A DNA stretch of 64,000 nt, from the NCBI GenBank assembly GCA_038064835.1, contig JBBTSD010000001.1:100406-164405 (forward strand). Direction: 5' to 3'. Under the pieces are notes generated by a model that worked only from the letters and a program-made list of their open reading frames with translations, did not search any database and was not told the DNA's origin. Made by a program: the position numbers and the translations under genes. Positions 10,773 to 59,607 of the stretch are shown here, piece by piece (the stretch's first letter is position 1; every line of letters starts with the position of its first letter). Source of the stretch: Patescibacteria group bacterium. GTDB lineage: Bacteria; Patescibacteriota; Minisyncoccia; Phycocordibacterales; UBA2100.

Positions 10773-12083
10773 ATGGGATTTCCTGTGATGCGATATGTGA
10801 GCGAGTGTGTTGCCTTCATGCGATTTCATATCCTACATCGTCGTTCACGCAAGGTGATTGAGAAATGGCAGACAGACAGGCTACGACGGTTACTCGTTCA
10901 TGCAGAAAAAAATGTACCACTATATAAAGAATTGATGGCGACACAAAACATCCGGGCTACGGACATCAGCACGCTTGAAAACCTCTCCTTTTTGCCAGTT
11001 ATCAACAAGAAAACATTTATTGGAAGGCAGGTTGTTGAATACACTGATGGCAGTCGACACCTTTCTGGTCAATGGGTAACAACATCAGGATCGAGCGGTG
11101 TTCCTTTTACAGCACTTCGACGAACCGAAGTACAAACACTGTGGTATGGGTACTCCCTCAACTCTCGGTTCCTGACATGGGAAATGCCGTGGCGTCTGAA
11201 TGCTGACTGGGCACGAGTGGCGCATATTCGTGTGCGCCCACGGGAACGAAAGAATCATTTATGGATTCCACTAGGCGCATTTTTGAACAATCCAAGGTCT
11301 TTATTACAGCAGATTGTCGATTTCAAACCCGATGTGGTTGAAAGTTTCGCATCAGTACTATATGTGTTAGCTCGCGAGGTTGATCGTTATGGAATTGTCT
11401 GGAAGCCGCGCTATGTGGTTTCAGGCGGAGAGCAATTGTCGCCGGCAGGGCGTCTTTTTATTGAAAACACACTGGGGTGCGAAGTGTACAACCGTTATGG
11501 TCTTGAAGAATTAGGCACAGTGGGCGTTGAATGCATGCAACATGACGGACTCCACATAAACTCCGAGTCGTTGATTGTTGAGATTGTTGACGAGAGTGGC
11601 GCAAGTGTGCCCGAAACAAATCACGGAAGAGTTATCATAACCGACTTGTTCAATACCAGCATGCCTTTTGTGCGCTACGACACAGGTGATCGAGGGCATA
11701 TGTCCTGGGCGCGTTGCGCGTGCGGATTGCGTGCACCCCGGTTGTGGATTGAAGGTCGTTACTCGACTTTTCTACAATTAGGAGATCAAACTTTTCATCA
11801 TTTCTATTTCTCATACACCCTGAAGCCATTCAAGAATCAAATTCTTCAATACCAAGTAGTAAAGCGTGCTGAAAATGACCTGCTTATCCGCATTATCCCG
11901 GGGTCTGCTTTTGGGGACGAAACAACAGTGGCTATTCAAAAAGAAATTGCCAATCTGGTTAAAGAGACAGCTTCGGTTCGTGTCGAGTGTGTTGCAGAAA
12001 TAAAACGAATGCCCCGGGGGAAATCTCAGGTTATCGTTGACGAAACGGCTGGCACTCAAAAACCAGATATTCTCAAACAATAA
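10773..12083 (+). CDS. Adenylate-forming enzyme, PaaK/CapK-like (paralog 2)
   Basis: TTSGSSGVPF and YDTGDRG motifs. It starts 3 nt after paralog 1. Confidence 0.6.
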   Translation: MGFPVMRYVSECVAFMRFHILHRRSRKVIEKWQTDRLRRLLVHAEKNVPLYKELMATQNIRATDISTLENLSFLPVINKKTFIGRQVVEYTDGSRHLSGQWVTTSGSSGVPFTALRRTEVQTLWYGYSLNSRFLTWEMPWRLNADWARVAHIRVRPRERKNHLWIPLGAFLNNPRSLLQQIVDFKPDVVESFASVLYVLAREVDRYGIVWKPRYVVSGGEQLSPAGRLFIENTLGCEVYNRYGLEELGTVGVECMQHDGLHINSESLIVEIVDESGASVPETNHGRVIITDLFNTSMPFVRYDTGDRGHMSWARCACGLRAPRLWIEGRYSTFLQLGDQTFHHFYFSYTLKPFKNQILQYQVVKRAENDLLIRIIPGSAFGDETTVAIQKEIANLVKETASVRVECVAEIKRMPRGKSQVIVDETAGTQKPDILKQ

Positions 12084-12411
12084 GTGAGCTTCACCATTGA
12101 GAAGGTCTGACCTTCTCAATGCGGCTAGCGAGGAGCGAAGTGATAGGAAGCGAAGCGGACTTTCACTTCGTCCGAGCGAAGACGCACTACAGGGTAGAAT
12201 ACCCTTTATTTTGACAGAAAGAGTCTCGCCATACAAAAACTTGCAAAGTCGTCTTCTTTCTGTATACTGCCCCACACATCCCTTCCCAGAAGGAATGTCC
12301 AAGTCCCTCATATGCATGGAGTAGCGAGAGGGACCAATGGTCGACATGGGTAACCATGCGCGCCATTGGCGCGCTGTTTTTCTAAACAAACAAAACCAAA
12401 AGACAAACACT

Positions 12412-13020
12412 ATGAAATTCCTTATGGGTACAAAAGGGCGAATGACCCAAGTTTTTGACGAAACCGGCAAGGTCCATGCGGGTACTGCTGTCGTATGCGA
12501 GAGTATGACTGCCGTACAGCTCAAGACAAAAGAGAAAGATGGGTATGATGCAGTGCAATATGGTTTCGGTTCGGCGCGGGTAGACCTGCAAAACAAGGCG
12601 GCAGCTGGTCACCTCAAGGACCTGCCTGCTTTGCGTTTCTTGCGAGAAGCCCATGGTGCAACTGGTGTCGCCCGAGGTGATGTTGCCGGTGTTACACTCT
12701 TTACTCCCGGTGACATTATCGAGGTAAGCGCCCTTTCAAAGGCAAAAGGATTTCAGGGGGTGGTCAAGCGCTATCGCTTTGCCGGAGATCTTGCGACACA
12801 TGGTCGTAAGCACACCGAACGAGCACCAGGTTCAATCGGTGGTGGCGGACGAGCTGGTGGTCGCGTGATCAAAGGCAAACGAATGGCGGGGCGCATGGGA
12901 GGAGACCGTGTGACAGTGAAAAACCTGCGCATTCTTGCTGTCGATTCAAAAACCAACACCATCATCATCTCAGGAGCTGTTCCAGGTCATCCTGGAGCGC
13001 TTGTCGAGATCCGTGGCTAA
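12412..13020 (+). CDS. rplC: 50S ribosomal protein L3
   Basis: MKFLMGTKGRMTQVFDETG...GFQGVVKRYRFAG...GSIGGGG is a classic L3 sequence. Start taken at ATG 12412 within the longer listed ORF. Confidence 0.9.
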   Translation: MKFLMGTKGRMTQVFDETGKVHAGTAVVCESMTAVQLKTKEKDGYDAVQYGFGSARVDLQNKAAAGHLKDLPALRFLREAHGATGVARGDVAGVTLFTPGDIIEVSALSKAKGFQGVVKRYRFAGDLATHGRKHTERAPGSIGGGGRAGGRVIKGKRMAGRMGGDRVTVKNLRILAVDSKTNTIIISGAVPGHPGALVEIRG

Positions 13021-13023
13021 TCA

Positions 13024-13770
13024 ATGAGTATGGAAAAAACAGCTACAAAAAAGAAGAAAGCAACTCGTGTTCGCAAGACCGCTCCCGCACCACAAGGAGA
13101 CTTTGCGCGTGACATTTATTCTGCAACAGGGAAGAAGCAGGGTTCGTACACATTGCCTACCGAAGTATTTGGACTCCCTTGGAATGAATCGCTGGTGTAC
13201 CAGGTGACACAAGCAGCACAAGCAAATGCGCGTACTCCCGTTGCTCATACCAAGACACGCGGCGAAGTGCGCGGTGGTGGCAAGAAGCCGTGGAAGCAAA
13301 AAGGTACAGGGCGTGCTCGTCACGGCTCGACTCGATCACCTATTTGGGTGGGTGGTGGAGTTGCTCATGGGCCGCGCAACGATAAGGACTATTCGCAGAA
13401 GGTCAATAAAAAGATGCGTGCAAAAGCCCTCAATGTCGTGCTTTCACGCAAGGCAAAAGACGGTGCCATTCTCTTGGTGGACGATCTGGGTATCACACAG
13501 CCAAAGACCAAGGATGCGCACAAGGTCATGGCTGCTCTTTCAAAGATCGAAGGGTTCACCACGATGCTTTCCAAAAAGAAGAACAGCTCCTTGGTGGTAC
13601 TTCCCGAGAAAAATTCGCCGATCTCAAAGAGTTTTGCGAACTTTGGAAACATATTCACGCTCGAAGCTCGTGAGCTCAATGCCACACTCGCGCTTACCTA
13701 TGCACACATTGTGTTCATCAATCCCGAGCAATCAATCCCGGTTATTACCCAACGAACTGCGCGCACATAA
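13024..13770 (+). CDS. rplD: 50S ribosomal protein L4
   Basis: Gene order and L4-like sequence (KPWKQKGTGRARHGS). Confidence 0.9.
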   Translation: MSMEKTATKKKKATRVRKTAPAPQGDFARDIYSATGKKQGSYTLPTEVFGLPWNESLVYQVTQAAQANARTPVAHTKTRGEVRGGGKKPWKQKGTGRARHGSTRSPIWVGGGVAHGPRNDKDYSQKVNKKMRAKALNVVLSRKAKDGAILLVDDLGITQPKTKDAHKVMAALSKIEGFTTMLSKKKNSSLVVLPEKNSPISKSFANFGNIFTLEARELNATLALTYAHIVFINPEQSIPVITQRTART

Positions 13771-13775
13771 CTTAT

Positions 13776-14135
13776 ATGGCTCTCTTTAAGACAAAGAAAA
13801 CTGCAGTGGGGAAGACTGAAGCTAAGCCCGTGTCTGCAGGTGCATCTGGCCCGGTTGATCTGTCGTGGGTATTGAAAGCGCCGCGCATCACAGAACGAGC
13901 AACTGATGTGATGCGTGTGCGTGCGTATGTGTTCAATGTTTCTCGTAAGGCAAACAAGCGACAGATTGCACAAGCAGTGCAACTTGTCTACAAAGTAACT
14001 CCTGTCAAAGTACGCACCGTACCGCTTCGTTCCAAAGTCCGTAAGAATGCGCGTACAGGCATTGTGGGACACACTGCCGTGGGCAAGAAAGCTTATGTCT
14101 ACCTGAAAGAAGGAGATACTATCACGCTCGCCTAG
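13776..14135 (+). CDS. rplW: 50S ribosomal protein L23
   Basis: Position between L4 and L2. L23-like 119 aa. Confidence 0.85.
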   Translation: MALFKTKKTAVGKTEAKPVSAGASGPVDLSWVLKAPRITERATDVMRVRAYVFNVSRKANKRQIAQAVQLVYKVTPVKVRTVPLRSKVRKNARTGIVGHTAVGKKAYVYLKEGDTITLA

Positions 14136-14150
14136 TTCTCATTTACGAAT

Positions 14151-14999
14151 ATGAAACATTTCAAACCATATACACAGAGTCGTCGAAACATGACACGCGT
14201 ATCATACGAGAAAGTTGTGACTACCGACACACCAACAAAAGCGCTTACTCACGGTTTTCGTCGCGGAAGCGGACGCAATAACCAAGGGCGTATCACCACG
14301 CGTCACAAGGGAGGTGGTGTGAAGCGTCGTCTGCGCGATGTGGATTTTCATTTCAACAAGCGCGGTATTCCCGCAAAGATTGTGTCGGTGGAATATGATC
14401 CAAATCGTTCTGCATACATTGGACTCATTGCGTATCTTGATGGCGAGCGTCGTTATATTGTGTTGCCACAAGGAGTGACTGCAGGTACGCACATTTTAAT
14501 TGCCGAAGATGCTCCTGCATCACCAGGTAATCGCCTCATGCTTAAAAATGTTCCTATCGGCACACTGATTTACAATGTTGAACTCAAACCCAACGGTGGT
14601 GCCAAGATTGCTCGCTCTGCAGGAAATTTTGTAGAACTCATTGCCCAAGATGCAGGGTGGTCACATCTCAAAATGCCGTCAAGCGAAGTGCGCAAAGTGC
14701 TCGACACCTGCTGGGCTTCGATTGGCGCCGCATCAAACGATGAACACAATTTGGTTAATCTTGGAAAGGCAGGGCGTTCGCGAAAAATGGGTATCCGCCC
14801 AACCGTGCGTGGCACCGCAATGAACCCGGTTGATCACCCTCATGGTGGTGGAGAAGGCCGTTCAGGTCGTGGTCATCGTCGCGCGCGTTCACTGTGGGGT
14901 CGCCCAACAGGCAAGGGACAAAAGAGCCGTCGTCCAAAGAAATACTCAAATACCTTCGTACTCTCTCGCCGCCGTGTGGGCAAGAAGCGAACTCCGTAA
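14151..14999 (+). CDS. rplB: 50S ribosomal protein L2
   Basis: L2 hallmark motifs (GRNNQGRITTRHKGGG, PNGGAKIARSAGN, HPHGGGEG). Confidence 0.95.
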   Translation: MKHFKPYTQSRRNMTRVSYEKVVTTDTPTKALTHGFRRGSGRNNQGRITTRHKGGGVKRRLRDVDFHFNKRGIPAKIVSVEYDPNRSAYIGLIAYLDGERRYIVLPQGVTAGTHILIAEDAPASPGNRLMLKNVPIGTLIYNVELKPNGGAKIARSAGNFVELIAQDAGWSHLKMPSSEVRKVLDTCWASIGAASNDEHNLVNLGKAGRSRKMGIRPTVRGTAMNPVDHPHGGGEGRSGRGHRRARSLWGRPTGKGQKSRRPKKYSNTFVLSRRRVGKKRTP

Positions 15000-15115
15000 G
15001 CGCGGTGACCACCTCGGTCTAGGTCGACTTGACTTTTGGTCCAAATGTGATATCATGCCGTCCAGGCGTGTTTTTGCCTGCAAAACTAGACGATAGACGA
15101 AAAAAGGGATGGAGC

Positions 15116-16126
15116 ATGACGCGAATCCTCGTATTGGCAGTGCTTGCACTGCTTTTTGCCACCCCCGCCATGGCCGCTGACACGGTGACATTGACCTGTG
15201 AAAGGGTCCTGGGCTGGTTCTCGTGGATGGGCTTCCTCAAGACTCTCGGCGTCACGGCGCTCACGGTCGGCATCGGCGGCCTCTTCTGGCACTGGCTCGT
15301 TCCAATCGTTACTGCGCTCTGGAAGGTGCTCGAGAAGGTCATCGATATCGCGGCACTCCTCGCGAGCGCCGCACTGATTGCGAGTGGCCACATCACTCCC
15401 GATGCCTACAAGCTCTGGCCGGTCTTGGGCGGGTCTATCGCATTCGGCGCGAGCACCCTGCTCTTCATCGTCCTGCGTAATATCAAGGGCACCAATCCTG
15501 CAGGCCTCTACGCTTTCCTGGCACTCGTCTGGGGTGGCGTCGCGGTGTTCTACGGCATGAGCGAAGTCGGCTTTCTGACGATGGCGGCTGTCATGGGCGT
15601 CCTCGGCTATACCGTCGTCGTCTCGCCGTTCTGCTACGGCTTCGGCTTCAAAGATGACGACCAGATTGCGACTGGAAGCTCGGCTGCGCTCCTGATCCTC
15701 TCAGCTTACACGGTGCAACATATCTTCTTCCCTGGCGCTCCTGCTTGGGTAAAGGTCTTTGCACCAGGCGCGTTCTGGCTTGGGTCGCTGGTGTCGTTCA
15801 CCGGCATTCTAATCATGTCGAATGTCTGGTACGGACGGGGAGCGGAGCGCTCGAACTACGGCCTCATGCAAGCGGTTGCCCTCGTCATCTATCTGGGCGG
15901 CGTCTTCGCCGGCATGACCTTCGGCATCAATCCGCTCGCGGGCATGGCCGGCTTCTTCTTCGTCTTCTGGGTCGCGGCCAAGTTCATCGAGATCCCGACG
16001 GAGAAGTGGACCGGCTTCTACCTCAAGCTGACTCTGATGGGGGCGTTCCTCTCTGGCGTGTGGTGGATTGGCCACCAGAACGAAGCCCACATCATCAAAT
16101 ACCTCACGACGACGCTCCCGATATGA
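15116..16126 (+). CDS. GC-rich polytopic membrane protein of unknown function, inserted inside the ribosomal-protein operon
   Basis: Start at ATG 15116 after GGATGGAG (listed ORF 15029..16126). Signal peptide MTRILVLAVLALLFATPAMAA, then at least 8 hydrophobic helices. GC is visibly higher (about 60%) than the flanking roughly 50% GC ribosomal genes. Confidence 0.5.
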   Translation: MTRILVLAVLALLFATPAMAADTVTLTCERVLGWFSWMGFLKTLGVTALTVGIGGLFWHWLVPIVTALWKVLEKVIDIAALLASAALIASGHITPDAYKLWPVLGGSIAFGASTLLFIVLRNIKGTNPAGLYAFLALVWGGVAVFYGMSEVGFLTMAAVMGVLGYTVVVSPFCYGFGFKDDDQIATGSSAALLILSAYTVQHIFFPGAPAWVKVFAPGAFWLGSLVSFTGILIMSNVWYGRGAERSNYGLMQAVALVIYLGGVFAGMTFGINPLAGMAGFFFVFWVAAKFIEIPTEKWTGFYLKLTLMGAFLSGVWWIGHQNEAHIIKYLTTTLPI

Positions 16127-16149
16127 GCGTGCACTGAGGTAGAACAAGG

Positions 16150-16172
16150 GCCCCGGGATCATTCCCGGGGCC
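16150..16172. terminator. GC-rich hairpin between convergent genes
   Basis: ccccgggatcattcccgggg, perfect 8-bp stem. Confidence 0.45.
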
Positions 16173-16180
16173 TTCTCATG

Positions 16181-16558
16181 TTAGGTACTCATCTTTGTTT
16201 TCGGTTTCGTTGGGTAGATGAGCCATGCATCCTCTCCGGTCTCCAAGTAGATACACTGTTCACCGAGGATAAACGCTACCTGGGCAAGGAATTTTTCCAA
16301 AACCGGTATTTTTTCCTTCCCGTTGAATGCCACGCTGTACAGGCGGTGTTCCCCGTAGAACATCTCTTGGTCGGCACCTGTCCAATAGCCAAAAATGTTG
16401 CCGGCGGTTACCGTAAATCCGCCGAATTGAGCGATCAAAAAATGCTGGATCGCATCCTCTGCGGTTTGCCGTTTTGTTTCATCCCACCAACTTTTGAGTT
16501 TGAGGGAAGGGAGCAGGAAGACAGCCGGTCTTCCCAGACTCACGCGCTCATATTTCAT
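16181..16558 (-). CDS. Hypothetical 125-aa protein (downstream member of a two-gene antisense pair inside the r-protein cluster)
   Basis: The ORF overlaps the upstream gene by 11 nt. No recognisable motif. Confidence 0.4.
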   Translation of the reverse strand: MKYERVSLGRPAVFLLPSLKLKSWWDETKRQTAEDAIQHFLIAQFGGFTVTAGNIFGYWTGADQEMFYGEHRLYSVAFNGKEKIPVLEKFLAQVAFILGEQCIYLETGEDAWLIYPTKPKTKMST

Positions 16559-17009
16559 TGGCGGCCCTCGTTTTTGTCATGAGTTCCAGAAGGACCTTTG
16601 CTTCCACATCAAACAAGTGGAGACGCTCCTCACAGTACCGGCGCACATCCTCTATGTACAAGCCGTTCCAGGGCGAACCTATGCTAGATATGTCCACAAC
16701 GAGCGGACCACCCAGGCTTGCGACTGGGTACATATCGAGCGCAAGTGCCGGATGATCTGGTGTGTGCATGCGATAGAGCCATGAATGCTCTTGGCCAATG
16801 CGGCCGAAGTAACCGGTTGCCACGCGCCATTCTGAAAATGTCTCCGGCCACCTTTGTTTCATGTAGCGTACAATACCGTGACATGACCAGAGGCCTTCCG
16901 GTTGTATGCCTAGTGGCGCCGGTGGAAGTCTGCCCAATTGCAAGCGCACACTGGCTACCATCTCGCGGAGTCCTTTCGGTGCCCCATAGAATTCAAGGGC
17001 TGTTTTCAT
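16548..17009 (-). CDS. Hypothetical 153-aa protein (upstream member of the antisense pair)
   Basis: Start at ATG 17009, preceded by AGGAGG 8 nt upstream (listed ORF extends to 17048). No recognisable motif. Confidence 0.4.
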   Translation of the reverse strand: MKTALEFYGAPKGLREMVASVRLQLGRLPPAPLGIQPEGLWSCHGIVRYMKQRWPETFSEWRVATGYFGRIGQEHSWLYRMHTPDHPALALDMYPVASLGGPLVVDISSIGSPWNGLYIEDVRRYCEERLHLFDVEAKVLLELMTKTRAANEI

Positions 17010-17108
17010 GGTGTTCCTCCTGCTGTACTCACGCGATAGTAGGCGCATTGTTTGACAATTGCAAGGATTACGCCTATTATTCCGTTCACGCCGTCTGGCG
17101 CTGTTTTT

Positions 17109-17447
17109 ATGGCAAGATCAGTAAAAAAGGGTCCCTTTGTGGACGCAAAACTCGCAAAGAAAGTAGCGGCGCGTAAGCCCGGTGCTGGCTCTATAAAGAC
17201 CTGGGCACGACGCAGCCAGATTCCACCCGAGTTTGTCGGCTATACTTTTGGCGTACATAATGGCAAATTGCATGTCGATGTGCTCGTCACCGAAGAAATG
17301 GTAGGTCATCGTCTTGGCGAATTTTCTCCGACCACTCGGTTCGGTCGTCATGGAGGCAAGATGCAAAAGGAGATCGAAACACAAAAGAAAGAGGCTGAAA
17401 TCGCTGCAGCAAAGTCCGCTAAGGCCGCCACCACCGAGAAGAAGTAA
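17109..17447 (+). CDS. rpsS: 30S ribosomal protein S19
   Basis: [15 protein letters not shown]...[17 protein letters not shown]. Start at ATG 17109. Confidence 0.9.
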
Positions 17448-20802: not shown

Positions 20803-21198
20803 ATGGAGAATACCATGGCGCTTGCGCGCGAAGACATCAAAGTAGGTGCGAAAGTGGGATGGAGCTCGTGGGGCTCCACGCTTGATGATGACCGTTATCA
20901 CCACGATAACTACGGGATGATTGTGGCGGTATGCGAGAAGTCTGGTATTTACCAGGTTCAACATTTGGAACACATGTATATCGGTCGGCACAACATAGTC
21001 ATTGTGAACAAGGACGACACATTCAGCACTCACACCATGACCATTGTTTCTGAGAAGGATTTTCAGGAGGTAGTTCGTCACAAACGAGACGATCTCAAGA
21101 AAAAGATATCCTCACTGAGGAGTTCGCTCGCCGAATCTCTGGCAGAGAGAAAGGTGGTAAGGCTTTTTTCTCAAAAAATGAGGAAGGTTCATGCGTAG
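20803..21198 (+). CDS. Hypothetical 131-aa soluble protein inserted between rplE and rpsN
   Basis: AAGGA RBS 8 nt upstream of the ATG. No recognisable motif. Confidence 0.4.
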   Translation: MENTMALAREDIKVGAKVGWSSWGSTLDDDRYHHDNYGMIVAVCEKSGIYQVQHLEHMYIGRHNIVIVNKDDTFSTHTMTIVSEKDFQEVVRHKRDDLKKKISSLRSSLAESLAERKVVRLFSQKMRKVHA

Positions 21199-21228
21199 GT
21201 TAGTCGCTGTTGACACAGACGGCTCATA

Positions 21229-21256
21229 AAAAAACCGCCGGTTACCCGGCGGTTTT
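21229..21256. terminator. Bidirectional intrinsic terminator between convergent genes
   Basis: aaaaaccgccggttacccggcggtttt with A-run and T-run flanks. Confidence 0.55.
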
Positions 21257-22012
21257 GTTTTTGTCGTCTTCCTCACGCTTTTTCTCGGCGCGGTTTTCTC
21301 GGATAACCTCGATAGTGCTTTTACCTCGGTGTTTCCTGCCATGCCACTCTTTGAGTGACTCTGCTGACCGGGTAACCCACGAAAATAGGGGGCCAAGCCA
21401 CATCCAACGAATCCAAGGATGACGGTCGATGAAAGCTTTCACTGGCGCCCACTTCTCGACTATGATTGACGAGAGGGCATCAAGGCCGATGATTTTGAGT
21501 TTCTCGACCATCATCCAGAGGAGTATCGAGGCGACGAATCCTTCAATCTTGCCGATGTGTTCGTTGATCCAGACAAAGCCCCAAAAGAACAAACTGATGA
21601 TAACGAGTGCGATAAGCGCTCGTACCCAGCGTGGCCAGTCTGGCTTGAAGAGCACGACTCGCTTGAGTGTCTCGAGTATGCGCGATTGTTTCTCGCCAAA
21701 CCACTTCTCGATTTTATCCTGGCGAACCTGTCCTAGTAGGAAGAGGGCAATGAGAATAGTGACGAGCCGCCAGAAGGGGCGCGAGATTTTTCGAATCATC
21801 GTGCGTTCAGTTAAGCCGCGGATACTGGTTGCAAGCGATTGCGAGAAGATGCCGACCAGACGGGCAAAGAATTCAACAATTGCTCGCCATAGCCAGATGA
21901 TCATCCGGCCGGCGGCTCCGAGGATGTCTGTGTCAAAGATACGGTCGATGACATGTATGCCACCCACAAAGAGAGCAAGCATGAGTATGATGCGGACGGC
22001 AATGATTACCAC
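21242..22012 (-). CDS. Hypothetical membrane protein (GTG start, AGGAGG RBS), antisense to the r-protein operon
   Basis: 256 aa, several TM helices and a K/E-rich charged C-terminus. Confidence 0.45.
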   Translation of the reverse strand: MVIIAVRIILMLALFVGGIHVIDRIFDTDILGAAGRMIIWLWRAIVEFFARLVGIFSQSLATSIRGLTERTMIRKISRPFWRLVTILIALFLLGQVRQDKIEKWFGEKQSRILETLKRVVLFKPDWPRWVRALIALVIISLFFWGFVWINEHIGKIEGFVASILLWMMVEKLKIIGLDALSSIIVEKWAPVKAFIDRHPWIRWMWLGPLFSWVTRSAESLKEWHGRKHRGKSTIEVIRENRAEKKREEDDKNKTAG

Positions 22013-22114
22013 TGTAGACCTCCTTCCCTATAGTTCCGAGTTTGATTATGACATCTTTTACCACTGTAAGCAATACTCGTGTACGAGGCCTCGGGAAAGT
22101 TGCCCTATGAGTTT

Positions 22115-22144
22115 GTTGACAATCCGTCGTGAAGGGCATAGTAT
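22115..22144 (+). promoter_or_regulatory. Putative sigma70-type promoter restarting transcription before rpsN
   Basis: TTGACA (22115-22120), 18-nt spacer, TAGTAT (22139-22144). Confidence 0.4.
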
Positions 22145-22173
22145 GCACAAGCCTTTTTAGGCCCATTTTTCTT

Positions 22174-22359
22174 ATGGCAAAGACATCCATGATTGCAAAA
22201 GCTAACCGCCCTCCGAAATACAAGAGTCGGGTGGTTCGTCGGTGCTTCCGTTGTGGGAGGCCGCGAGGCTATATGCGCGCCTTTGGCTTTTGCCGTATCT
22301 GTTTCCGCGAACAGGCTCTCGAGGGGCACATTCCTGGGGTAAAGAAGTCTTCTTGGTAA
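22174..22359 (+). CDS. rpsN: 30S ribosomal protein S14, Zn-binding type (S14 type Z)
   Basis: 61 aa [46 protein letters not shown] with a CxxC...CxxC motif. Start at ATG 22174. Confidence 0.85.
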
Positions 22360-38857: not shown

Positions 38858-39514
38858 ATGAGCACAGAATTTGCGATTGCCGATGTTTCGCCCGGCAAGC
38901 TGAACGCACTGGTGAAGAACCTCATGCGTCAGACTGGAGAATCCGATCCAAACGAGGCCGTTCGTCTTCTCAACTCGGGTGAATGGGTTGTTTCAAAACC
39001 GACCCATTCATGGCACGAGAAAGACGGCGTCATCTACTTCAATGTCACCTCGGACGGCACGACCGGCGAGGACTGGATCACCCGGCTCGAGAGCAAGGGC
39101 TTCAGCGTGGACAGCTGCGCCAAGCAGGTGCTCCGCTCAGCGGATTTCAAGCCGACCAACGGCGTGACGACCGAAGTCGCCGTCCTCAAAGGCTGTCTCT
39201 TCGAGGAACGGGGCCGGACTACTTCGGTGATCCGCGCCGAGGCCGACAAGAGGAAGCTCTCGAAGCCGAACACCGAGATCACCTGCCTCATCCGTGAGAA
39301 GTTCACCGACAAGAAGATCGAAGCGATGGGTCTGTGGTACATCGTTGCCATGCACGAACCCATCAACGACTCCGGCGGCGATCCGGTCTTGCTGTACGCG
39401 AACCGTAGCGTCGATGGTCGCCGGCTCAAGGCGTGCCACGAGCGGCCTCTCAACGGGTGGCATCGTGACAGCGGGTTCGCGTTCGCCGTGTCGCACGGCA
39501 GTGCTCAACCCTAA
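38858..39514 (+). CDS. Hypothetical protein encoded by a GC-rich gene
   Basis: 218 aa with an AAGGAGA RBS. Body roughly 60% GC versus roughly 50% for neighbours. Confidence 0.4.
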   Translation: MSTEFAIADVSPGKLNALVKNLMRQTGESDPNEAVRLLNSGEWVVSKPTHSWHEKDGVIYFNVTSDGTTGEDWITRLESKGFSVDSCAKQVLRSADFKPTNGVTTEVAVLKGCLFEERGRTTSVIRAEADKRKLSKPNTEITCLIREKFTDKKIEAMGLWYIVAMHEPINDSGGDPVLLYANRSVDGRRLKACHERPLNGWHRDSGFAFAVSHGSAQP

Positions 39515-53617: not shown

Positions 53618-53655
53618 ATACGCAAAAACACCCGCTGGCGCGGATGTTTTTACTT

Positions 53656-54045
53656 TGTGGAGATGGCGGGAATTGAACCCGCGTCCAAAGGAGGAGTAGC
53701 TGATCGGTGTACACAAGGTAGTTCATTTGATTTTGTTTAAACGCAGGATGTGTGAAATGAGCAAAATCATCACGCGTCGAGCTTTCTTTCTTTAGTCAGT
53801 ATCTTGAAGCATCAGACACTGACGAATCCGGCATATATGACATGTACGGCATCTTGTCGGATGAAGATGAGTACACGGCCGCTTAGGCTAATGCGTAAGC
53901 GAAGCTGAGATCTTTCACCTGAATCGGTGAAAGGAACCCCCGTGCGGTTTTATTTGCACTTAGATTTTGAACAGTTTAAAGAAGATGTTCACTTCTCTTG
54001 TGCCTTTCAAGCTCTCGAATCTCCCTGTCGAAGCCAATCATCCCC
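53656..54045 (-). ncRNA. ssrA: tmRNA (SsrA), standard one-piece form
   Basis: Minus strand 5'-GGGGAUGAUUGGCUUCGACAGGGAGAUUCG... and 3'-...GGACGCGGGUUCAAUUCCCGCCAUCUCC-A. The acceptor stem GGGGAUG/CAUCUCC has G3-U70. The T-arm is GCGGG-UUCAAUU-CCCGC. Both ends closely resemble the E. coli tmRNA ends as recalled. An internal frame ...DLSFAYALA-UAA (stop revcomp at 53883-53885) is a plausible tag. smpB lies 0.6 kb upstream on the same strand, and a terminator follows at 53625-53652. Confidence 0.7.
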
Positions 54046-59384: not shown

Positions 59385-59607
59385 GCGCCCGTAGCTCAAT
59401 GGTAGAGCGCTAAGCTTACTGTGGCTAACGAGCGTCGATTGAAAATCTGTGTGGGCGCATAGCTCAATGGTAGAGCGCCAAGCTTATACCTTGGTGGTTC
59501 TAGGTTCGAATCCTAGTGCGCCCACACAGATTTTCAATTCGCGCGAGTAACGACACAGGATTGAAAATATACCTTAGTGGTTCCAGGTTCGAGTCCTGGC
59601 GGGCGCA
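59385..59607 (+). tRNA. tRNA-Val(UAC)-like gene split by a 151-nt insertion in the anticodon loop (5' part 59385-59419; 3' part 59571-59607)
   Basis: 5' GCGCCCG-TA-GCTC-AATGGTA-GAGC-G-CTAAG-CTTAC | ... | AC-CTTAG-TGGTT-CCAGG-TTCGAGT-CCTGG-CGGGCGC-A. Acceptor, D, anticodon and T stems are all fully complementary across the insertion. Confidence 0.45.
59453..59524 (+). tRNA. Complete tRNA with anticodon UAU (tRNA-Ile(UAU)-like), nested inside the split tRNA
   Basis: GGGCGCA-TA-GCTC-AATGGTA-GAGC-G-CCAAG-CTTATAC-CTTGG-TGGTT-CTAGG-TTCGAAT-CCTAG-TGCGCCC-A, a canonical cloverleaf. Flanked by a 17-18-bp inverted repeat (59436-59452 / 59525-59541). Confidence 0.6.

Follow-up and report, generated by a model that had tools for sequence, protein, structure and literature searches.

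In model bacteria the S10 cluster of ribosomal protein genes is a single operon. The adjacency of rplB and rpsS is taken as near-invariant and is a basis of ribosomal protein phylogenomics and of quality checks on metagenome-assembled genomes (MAGs). At the boundaries between ribosomal protein operons of Gammaproteobacteria and Bacilli, unrelated genes are known to have been inserted, a step described as 'invasion' (PMC8046335). Here we analysed a window of 64,000 nucleotides (the whole stretch of DNA considered, with positions counted from its first letter) on a contig of 330,809 bp in the NCBI MAG of an uncultured member of the Patescibacteria (candidate phyla radiation, CPR), whose lineage we refer to as Paceibacteria-like. 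In this genome rplB and rpsS lie 2.1 kb apart, separated by a forward-strand gene for a 336-residue membrane protein, a GC hairpin and two overlapping antisense genes for proteins of 125 and 153 residues, which we call orf125 and orf153 (locus tags AAB421_00430, 00435 and 00440). Our literature search found nothing relevant on a split between rplB and rpsS, or on an interruption of the S10 operon, in CPR, Parcubacteria or Patescibacteria. We argue, at a probability of roughly 0.7, that the S10 operon is split at rplB|rpsS in this lineage and that the split forms an insulated seam for gene capture, with layered cargo in the sub-clade of the window genome.

The genes rplC-rplD-rplW-rplB span positions 12337-14999, and the cluster picks up again at rpsS (17109) and continues to rplE. 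The promoter-like boxes listed below come from a consensus scan scored out of 12 positions; they are pattern matches, backed by conservation. The junction holds the following features:

14151..14999, forward strand: rplB (ribosomal protein L2; Pfam L2_N, E 2e-30, and L2_C, E 3e-47), closing the upstream unit rplC-rplD-rplW-rplB.
15029..15056, forward strand: promoter-like box TTGACT-16-(TG)TATCAT before the membrane gene, 10/12 matches, extended -10.
15054..15075, forward strand: short hairpin followed by TTTTT, 55 nt past the rplB stop, terminator-like in the scan; candidate terminator of the rplB unit.
15116..16126, forward strand: membrane protein gene, 336 amino acids, with GGAG 5 nt upstream of its ATG.
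16149..16172: perfect GC hairpin with a 10-bp stem, placed where the membrane gene and orf125 converge; possible bidirectional terminator.
16181..16558, reverse strand: orf125, 125 amino acids, resident of the junction in the sub-clade.
16548..17009, reverse strand: orf153, 153 amino acids, overlapping orf125 by 11 nt.
17036..17064, reverse strand: weak promoter-like box TTGCAA-17-TACTAT for the antisense pair, 8/12 matches, below the scan threshold and read by eye.
17052..17080, forward strand: promoter-like box TTGACA-17-TATTAT, 28 nt before rpsS, 11/12 matches.
17087..17108, forward strand: rpsS leader, a short GC hairpin and then a T-run directly past the predicted transcription start; a recurring positional pattern.
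17109..17447, forward strand: rpsS (S19; Pfam Ribosomal_S19, E 2e-29), opening the downstream unit rpsS-rplV-rpsC-rplP-rpmC-rpsQ-rplN-rplX-rplE.

These features agree with a first-pass annotation made from the sequence alone, which had described an rplB-rpsS adjacency broken by non-ribosomal genes, a polytopic membrane protein with a signal-like N-terminus, a GGAGG-like ribosome-binding site and a downstream GC hairpin, and two antisense genes of 153 and 125 residues with an 11-nt overlap and an AGGAGG for the upstream one. That Shine-Dalgarno sequence lies at 17016-17021 (forward-strand numbering), 6 nt before the ATG of orf153. One distance has to be corrected: rpsS, said to restart 60 nt after the insert, begins 99 nt from the start of orf153, and 60 nt is obtained only by counting from an in-frame upstream ATG at 17048. 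The NCBI call for orf153 is 104 residues and looks too short; the 153-residue form is supported because homologs align from residue 1, with M1 and Y8 invariant across 14 sequences.

Chimerism is possible at conserved regions of MAG contigs, and an erroneous join within the operon, made during assembly or binning, would also produce such a gap. We find this hardly credible. The same gene order is present in at least five assemblies (the NCBI MAG contig, two Logan assemblies from different runs and two ENA contigs from Hainich groundwater, one of which ends inside orf153), and comparable enlargements are seen in numerous independent MAGs produced by different studies. A third Logan contig, a short one, carries the membrane gene alone. 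Because the identical order was recovered across independent assemblies, the rplB-rpsS insert is not a chimeric join.

Comparison of the rplB-rpsS spacing in related genomes, as the first-pass annotation had proposed, showed that the gap is also enlarged there and filled with unrelated genes. We collected rplB loci from GTDB species representatives and Joint Genome Institute metagenomes and measured every ribosomal protein junction by tblastn. Among 20 wider relatives, whose rplB is 56-69% identical to that of the window (labelled Kaiserbacteria, Zambryskiibacteriota, Paceibacterota, Minisyncoccia and others), the rplB|rpsS distance exceeds 300 nt in 14 (median 665, maximum 4046 nt), while it is 138 nt or less in all 124 unrelated bacterial loci. 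With the four genomes of the sub-clade included, 18 of 24 relatives have an expanded junction (Fisher p 2e-18 against the 124 unrelated bacteria). The expansion is specific to few places: 14 other ribosomal protein junctions in the relatives' loci never exceed 245 nt, and the sole other expanded interval is rplE|rpsH, at about 950-1800 nt in L002, L004, L095 and L099. The rplB|rpsS junction is a lineage-wide hotspot with unrelated cargo in each genome, comprising a MazE/PemK (MazEF) pair in L003, DUF5674 in L008, a 1007-residue PKD/CARDB protein with an IS200-like Y1 transposase in L009, a diacylglycerol kinase (DAGK) in L011, DUF3298/PdaC-like proteins in L093 and L098, and orphan open reading frames (ORFs) in several other relatives.

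The S10 operon also appears to be split at this junction into separate, insulated transcription units. A promoter-like box lies about 29-39 nt before rpsS in most of the expanded relatives. Boxes with at least 9/12 matches precede rpsS in 15 of the 24 relatives and in 4 of the 124 non-relatives (Fisher p 3e-11), and the mean promoter score of the relatives is 9.1 upstream of rpsS versus 7.0-7.8 upstream of other ribosomal protein genes. In three closer relatives found by exact-protein look-ups (L176, L181 and L182), the hexamers of the rpsS box are identical to those of the window, and the surrounding non-coding block of about 60 nt is conserved at the DNA level. Each of the three carries a hairpin with a T-run 20-35 nt past the rplB stop, and each has a hairpin homologous to that between the convergent genes of the window, at the same position and there flanked by A- and T-tracts. 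In the window, the hairpin past rplB (15054-15075) shares sequence with the membrane-gene promoter, both with its -10 box and with its predicted start site; the succession of promoter, hairpin and T-run before the membrane gene (15029-15075) resembles the arrangement of the rpsS leader. The box of the antisense pair stands back-to-back with the rpsS box, and its presumed equivalent in L176 is TTGTCA-17-TAGAGT. The conserved rpsS promoter-like box, the hairpins past rplB and the conserved convergent hairpin suggest separate units and speak against the transcriptional collision with the ribosomal protein operon that had been read from the antisense orientation.

The leader element of rpsS, a hairpin and T-run whose sequence differs in each genome, recurs in about 11-12 relatives (L004, L008, L010-L012, L014, L093, L094, L176, L181 and L182). 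Whole-segment folding z-scores of the rpsS leader were weak and unremarkable. It may act in attenuation, stabilise the 5' end or be a terminator that overlaps the start of transcription.

In the three closer relatives, rplB is 76-77% identical to that of the window (full-length, L176 and L181) or 90% identical over a 73-residue fragment (L182), and L176 and L181 share 89%. Their gene orders, with identities to the window proteins, are:

L182: rplB and an M50 peptidase gene (279 amino acids), both forward; homologs of orf125 (68% identity) and orf153 (44%), both reverse; rpsS, forward.
L176: as in L182, with the M50 peptidase truncated (142 amino acids).
L181: rplB, an M50 peptidase gene (278 amino acids) and an ORF of 148 amino acids, all forward; a homolog of orf125 (60%), reverse; rpsS, forward.

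Thus orf125 lies antisense beside rpsS in all four sub-clade genomes and orf153 in three of them, the two genes overlapping by 11 nt in the window and by 1 nt in L176 and L182. The slot after rplB is occupied by an M50 metalloprotease in the three relatives and by the GC-rich membrane gene only in the window genome, where a search for M50 remnants found none.

We then compared base composition with that of 69 non-overlapping ORFs of the window, whose G+C content at third codon positions (GC3) is 0.502 +/- 0.069. The membrane gene has a GC content of 0.599 and a GC3 of 0.786, about +4 standard deviations (sd) for the 336-residue gene and z +3.6 for a 365-residue version of the ORF. Because the excess is located at third codon positions, it is not merely an amino-acid effect of a membrane protein. 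Neither orf125 (GC3 0.58) nor orf153 (GC3 0.55) is anomalous. The earlier description of a gene of about 60% GC with foreign composition is therefore borne out for the membrane gene (+3.6 to +4 sd), which is found at rplB|rpsS in this genome and in none of the sampled relatives; a test of composition across the insert singles out this gene and leaves the antisense pair native-like. Composition argues that the membrane gene is a recent arrival in the layered cargo.

The membrane protein has an N-terminal signal-like segment ending AMA/AD and about 9-10 hydrophobic segments. We found only 7 homologs, with 43-53% identity and 59 invariant columns, and a distant one with 29% identity on a Rhizobium megaplasmid (NZ_CP140867.1, 929563-930447). 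The protein itself gave no match in Pfam, NCBIfam, PADLOC or PHROG, and family-wide scans were negative too. Of the homolog contigs, two were examined, and in both the setting is non-ribosomal: in L089 the gene lies near T4SS_pilin/SLT genes, and in L088 near a Fic/RhuM gene. Both homologs have a GC3 above the GC content of their own contigs (L088, 1388-2398, 0.57 vs 0.45; L089, 2568-3584, 0.65 vs 0.50), and the family may be generally mobile or may carry an intrinsic codon bias. Within the window, an ORF of 218 residues at 38858-39514, without a Pfam match, is the only other gene with a similar GC3 excess (0.77, +3.9 sd) and may be a second acquisition from a similar donor.

Because the antisense genes are native-like in composition and syntenic at the junction in the closest relatives, the insert is, judged by composition and synteny, layered and partly old cargo and not one foreign block. 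The first-pass annotation had read it as a single 2-kb foreign insertion. This stands for the membrane gene but not for orf125 (4/4) and orf153 (3/4), which are syntenic within the sub-clade; recurrence of the same genes at the site across the lineage, which that annotation took as evidence against its reading, was partly observed for the two antisense genes, orf125 and orf153, but the membrane gene showed none. The foreign composition of the membrane gene, the transposase at the same site among the relatives (IS200-like, L009) and the phage relatives of orf153 described below are what one would expect if the whole 2.1-kb block were one recently integrated mobile element or genomic island targeting the rplB-rpsS spacer. 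We consider such an origin very unlikely, as the three genes carry no integrase, transposase or recombinase domain in Pfam, and the flanking direct and inverted repeats are chance-level, imperfect matches of 10-21 nt, with no att-like repeats found. Moreover, composition is heterogeneous, with one of the three genes deviant, and relatives whose rplB is 76% identical have orf125, orf153 and the hairpin in synteny.

We propose that in this Paceibacteria-like lineage the S10 cluster has been cut into separate transcription units at rplB|rpsS. In such an arrangement, rplB would be followed by a terminator-like hairpin, and rpsS would be served by its own conserved sigma-70-type promoter box and short leader hairpin. 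DNA placed between terminator and promoter would exert no polarity on the downstream ribosomal protein genes, because these would not depend on read-through, and the gap would therefore act as a safe harbour filled by different accessory genes in each genome. An old resident in the sub-clade would be orf125, antisense and divergent from rpsS, with orf153 translationally coupled upstream of it in three of the four genomes. A co-directional membrane-protein slot past rplB would house the M50 peptidase in the relatives and a recently acquired GC-rich protein of 336 residues here, and the sense and antisense units would be insulated from each other by the conserved bidirectional hairpin where the genes converge.

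Several points weigh against this proposal. Not every member of the clade has the seam: L095, L096 and L099 keep a tight rplB|rpsS junction, with a promoter-like box already present within the 3' end of rplB or beside it. Promoters and terminators were identified as consensus matches with conservation as their sole support, and the leader hairpin with its T-run, being downstream of the rpsS box, could act as an attenuator and not as a piece of an insulator. Which gene first occupied the slot after rplB is not strictly polarisable, because the three genomes with M50 resemble one another more (89% rplB identity) than they resemble the window (76%). Finally, the membrane-gene family is somewhat GC-richer than the host contig in both other loci examined, and part of the GC anomaly may be intrinsic to the gene.

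The two antisense genes had been described as lacking recognisable domains. This is true at the level of sequence; at the level of structure, each protein yields a confident model whose fold can be recognised. For orf125 the relevant known enzymes are phage lyases of S-adenosylmethionine (SAM), namely Svi3-3 and the T3 SAMase (PDB 6ZM9; PMC7877911), and the CRISPR-associated SAM-AMP lyases (PDB 9GAB; PMC12255297). SAM lyases are trimers with interfacial active sites and cleave SAM to methylthioadenosine (MTA) and homoserine lactone. They have a catalytic Glu at the start of beta3 (E69 in Svi3-3, E71 in the SAM-AMP lyase), a conserved Gly and an aromatic residue on beta2, and a conserved Gln in the B-loop (Q104 and Q108, respectively).

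The orf125 family comprises at least 279 clusters at 90% identity and has no Pfam domain; its few named members are all from Patescibacteria. No homologs were found in IMG/VR or INPHARED by pattern scans and tblastn, and orf125 itself matches nothing significantly in Pfam, NCBIfam, PADLOC or PHROG. When 108 members of the family were scanned against PHROG, the sole match was phrog_3543, which has no name or description, in 2 members. The AlphaFold model of orf125 (pLDDT, the per-residue confidence score, 90.6) predicts a ferredoxin-like beta-alpha-beta-beta-alpha-beta fold, PII-like or SAM-lyase-like, within the range of about 120-130 residues. The best match to this predicted fold is a SAM lyase, well above the matches to S6, and a Foldseek comparison with viral models returned many phage proteins of about 115 residues, including annotated SAM hydrolases. 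In the family alignment Gly57 is invariant, and Trp59 and Glu70 reach a conservation of at least 90%. From Gly to Glu the distance is 13 both here (Gly57-Glu70) and in Svi3-3 (G56-E69), which makes Glu70 a candidate counterpart of the catalytic Glu. Unlike the SAM lyases, orf125 has a shorter beta2-beta3 loop and, in its B-loop between helix 2 and strand 4, an invariant Glu100 and no conserved Gln. There is no sequence-level similarity either: a profile search of PDB sequences returned spurious matches and neither 6zm9 nor 9gab, and PHROG was negative. Furthermore, the family is cellular and is not linked to CRISPR in the loci seen. The product of orf125 is probably a trimer of PII-like or SAM-lyase-like type, with a nucleoside metabolite related to SAM as the molecule that it binds or cleaves. 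Because a Glu replaces the B-loop Gln and a sequence-level link to characterised members is lacking, we do not class it as a SAM lyase and use 'PII/SAM-lyase-type small-molecule enzyme' as a working description of the model.

The position of orf125 raises the question of whether the cargo is tied to the ribosome. Its box and that of rpsS stand back-to-back within a conserved 60-nt block, and the position is kept in 4/4 sub-clade genomes, as would fit a protein that shares a divergent promoter region with rpsS, is co-regulated with it and acts in translation or ribosome modification. We regard this as quite unlikely, since 3 of the 7 loci examined for the orf125 family are at other places, beside GCV_T, MsrA or FKBP genes, an enzyme (SAM lyase) gives the best fold match and clearly outranks S6, and other genomes fill the same seam with unrelated genes.

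For orf153, an exhaustive HMMER search yielded a family of 135 representatives. Conservation of C43 is 90% or more, H75 does not vary in either alignment (14 and 80 sequences), and D92 is invariant in the closest 14 and at least 90% conserved in the 80-sequence alignment. In the model (pLDDT 96.4), Cys43 is predicted at the N-terminus of helix 43-53, and His75 and Asp92 on strands 74-80 and 89-92; the order Cys-His-Asp and this placement fit a transglutaminase-like or papain-like fold. Weak structural matches include LapG/BTLCP, TglA, protein-glutaminase and arylamine N-acetyltransferases, as well as SseI and PMT. The protein is small and cytoplasmic, without a signal peptide. No significant match was found in Pfam (including Transglut_core), NCBIfam, PADLOC or PHROG, a profile search of PDB sequences returned only spurious matches, and IMG/VR pattern scans with orf153 itself and with the 14-member alignment were negative. 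On its model, orf153 is a predicted transglutaminase-fold Cys-His-Asp enzyme, presumably a hydrolase or transferase.

Homologs of orf153 occur on phage-like contigs, with a His-Me/HNH-like gene in L081, with SbcC-like ATPase, DNA methylase, NusG-like and CSD genes in L179, and among dozens of small co-oriented ORFs with an integrase in L183; others are encoded by 193-kb Rhizobium phages, including RHEph12. A phage origin followed by domestication appears likeliest. L081 was considered as a further case of the conserved pair and rejected, as the next gene past the orf153 homolog is the His-Me/HNH-like one and not a relative of orf125.

These family distributions also bear on the first-pass suggestion that the pair is a toxin/immunity-like or defence-like module. 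In such a toxin-antitoxin (TA), toxin/immunity or anti-phage system the papain-fold orf153 would be the toxin and orf125 its neutraliser. The genes are compact, co-oriented and overlapping (by 11 nt in the window and 1 nt in L176 and L182) and are kept together in 3/4 sub-clade genomes. Deamidation and proteolysis by papain- or transglutaminase-fold enzymes are chemistries already known from toxins, and the weak fold matches of orf153 include SseI and PMT; a genuine MazEF pair is present at the same seam in L003. The partners are, however, not obligate: orf153 homologs occur without orf125 in L081, L179/L180, L183 and phage RHEph12, and orf125 homologs occur without orf153 in L181, L082, L084 and L086, beside housekeeping genes. 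Neither protein matches PADLOC, Pfam or NCBIfam, no DNA-binding domain is present, and the orf125 family, which numbers at least 279 clusters and has invariant polar residues like those of an enzyme, is atypical of an antitoxin. We therefore think a toxin or defence module unlikely.

A second interval of the same cluster, between rplE and rpsN (20803..22173), has an architecture that matches the design of rplB|rpsS, with a 131-residue gene, a bidirectional hairpin, a 256-residue membrane gene and a promoter box:

20803-21198, forward strand: gene of 131 amino acids.
21231-21256: bidirectional hairpin.
21242-22012, reverse strand: membrane gene of 256 amino acids.
22116-22144: box TTGACA-17-TAGTAT ahead of rpsN.
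22174-22359: rpsN, Zn-type.

In L176, a 212-residue gene between rplE and rpsN (482-1120) weakly resembles a putative phage metallopeptidase (PF18894, E 0.003), which suggests phage-derived cargo at the second seam too. It is possible that rplB|rpsS and rplE|rpsN have both been made insulated capture sites by a terminator and a restart promoter, and that orf125, as a long-term resident, belongs to a large cellular SAM-lyase-like family not recognised before, with an altered active site, and is paired here with a domesticated phage transglutaminase-fold enzyme; this wider account is tentative, and we consider it rather doubtful as a whole.

Further observations concern the upstream end of the cluster and the RNA genes of the window. 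The region ahead of rplC (12083-12337) lacks rpsJ (S10), and a tblastn search with the E. coli protein was negative over the 64-kb window. A 436-residue protein precedes rplC, with only a sub-threshold AMP-binding match. In several relatives the rpsJ|rplC gap measures 860-1470 nt or rpsJ is absent nearby (L003, L004 and L096), and a third seam may lie at rpsJ|rplC. Two structured RNAs, and no others, were detected in the window: a transfer-messenger RNA at 53655-54045 (tag ANKTARGFLSPIQVKDLSFAYALA) and a tRNA-Ile with anticodon TAT at 59453-59525.

The main result, as we infer it, is a clade-specific re-partitioning of the ribosomal protein cluster that creates recurrent gene-capture seams, of which this locus would be one instance. 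A clade with a routine rplB-rpsS gap of 0.5-4 kb and variable cargo would indicate that the S10 operon can be re-partitioned, and could exemplify a natural route of gene capture in an essential operon, in which an internal promoter comes first and invasion after. If this is true, an essential and highly expressed locus would serve as a safe harbour that repeatedly gains TA systems, transposases, membrane proteins and phage genes. It would also be a caveat for synteny-based binning and scaffolding of CPR genomes. The locus in addition draws attention to two uncharacterised families with confident structural models and catalytic-looking conserved residues, orf125 so far found only in Patescibacteria and orf153 associated with phages.

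The cargo genes resemble known systems in part. Like transglutaminase- and papain-fold enzymes, orf153 combines Cys43, His75 and Asp92, with the Cys at a helix N-terminus; unlike them, it has only about 150 residues, no signal peptide and no Transglut_core, and its family occurs in regions resembling phage early genes. With type II TA pairs, the antisense genes share small size, overlap and a common strand, and a genuine MazE/MazF pair occupies the seam in L003, but their partners are not obligately linked, toxin or antitoxin homology is lacking and orf125 is enzyme-like. Conserved flanks, variable cargo and one cargo gene of deviant composition are features shared with integration hotspots and genomic islands; here, however, there is no integrase, tRNA or tmRNA target or att repeat, and the site lies within a ribosomal protein cluster. 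In the account of Brandis (PMC8046335), as here, a few unrelated genes come to lie between ribosomal protein transcription units and leave the flanking genes undisturbed. That account concerns invasion between operons, whereas the present seam is lineage-specific, holds cargo that varies from genome to genome, and has a conserved dedicated rpsS promoter box and a second, similar seam at rplE|rpsN. The phenomenon is thus kin to the known invasion of operon boundaries and to integration hotspots, and is set apart from them by its site inside the canonical single S10 operon.

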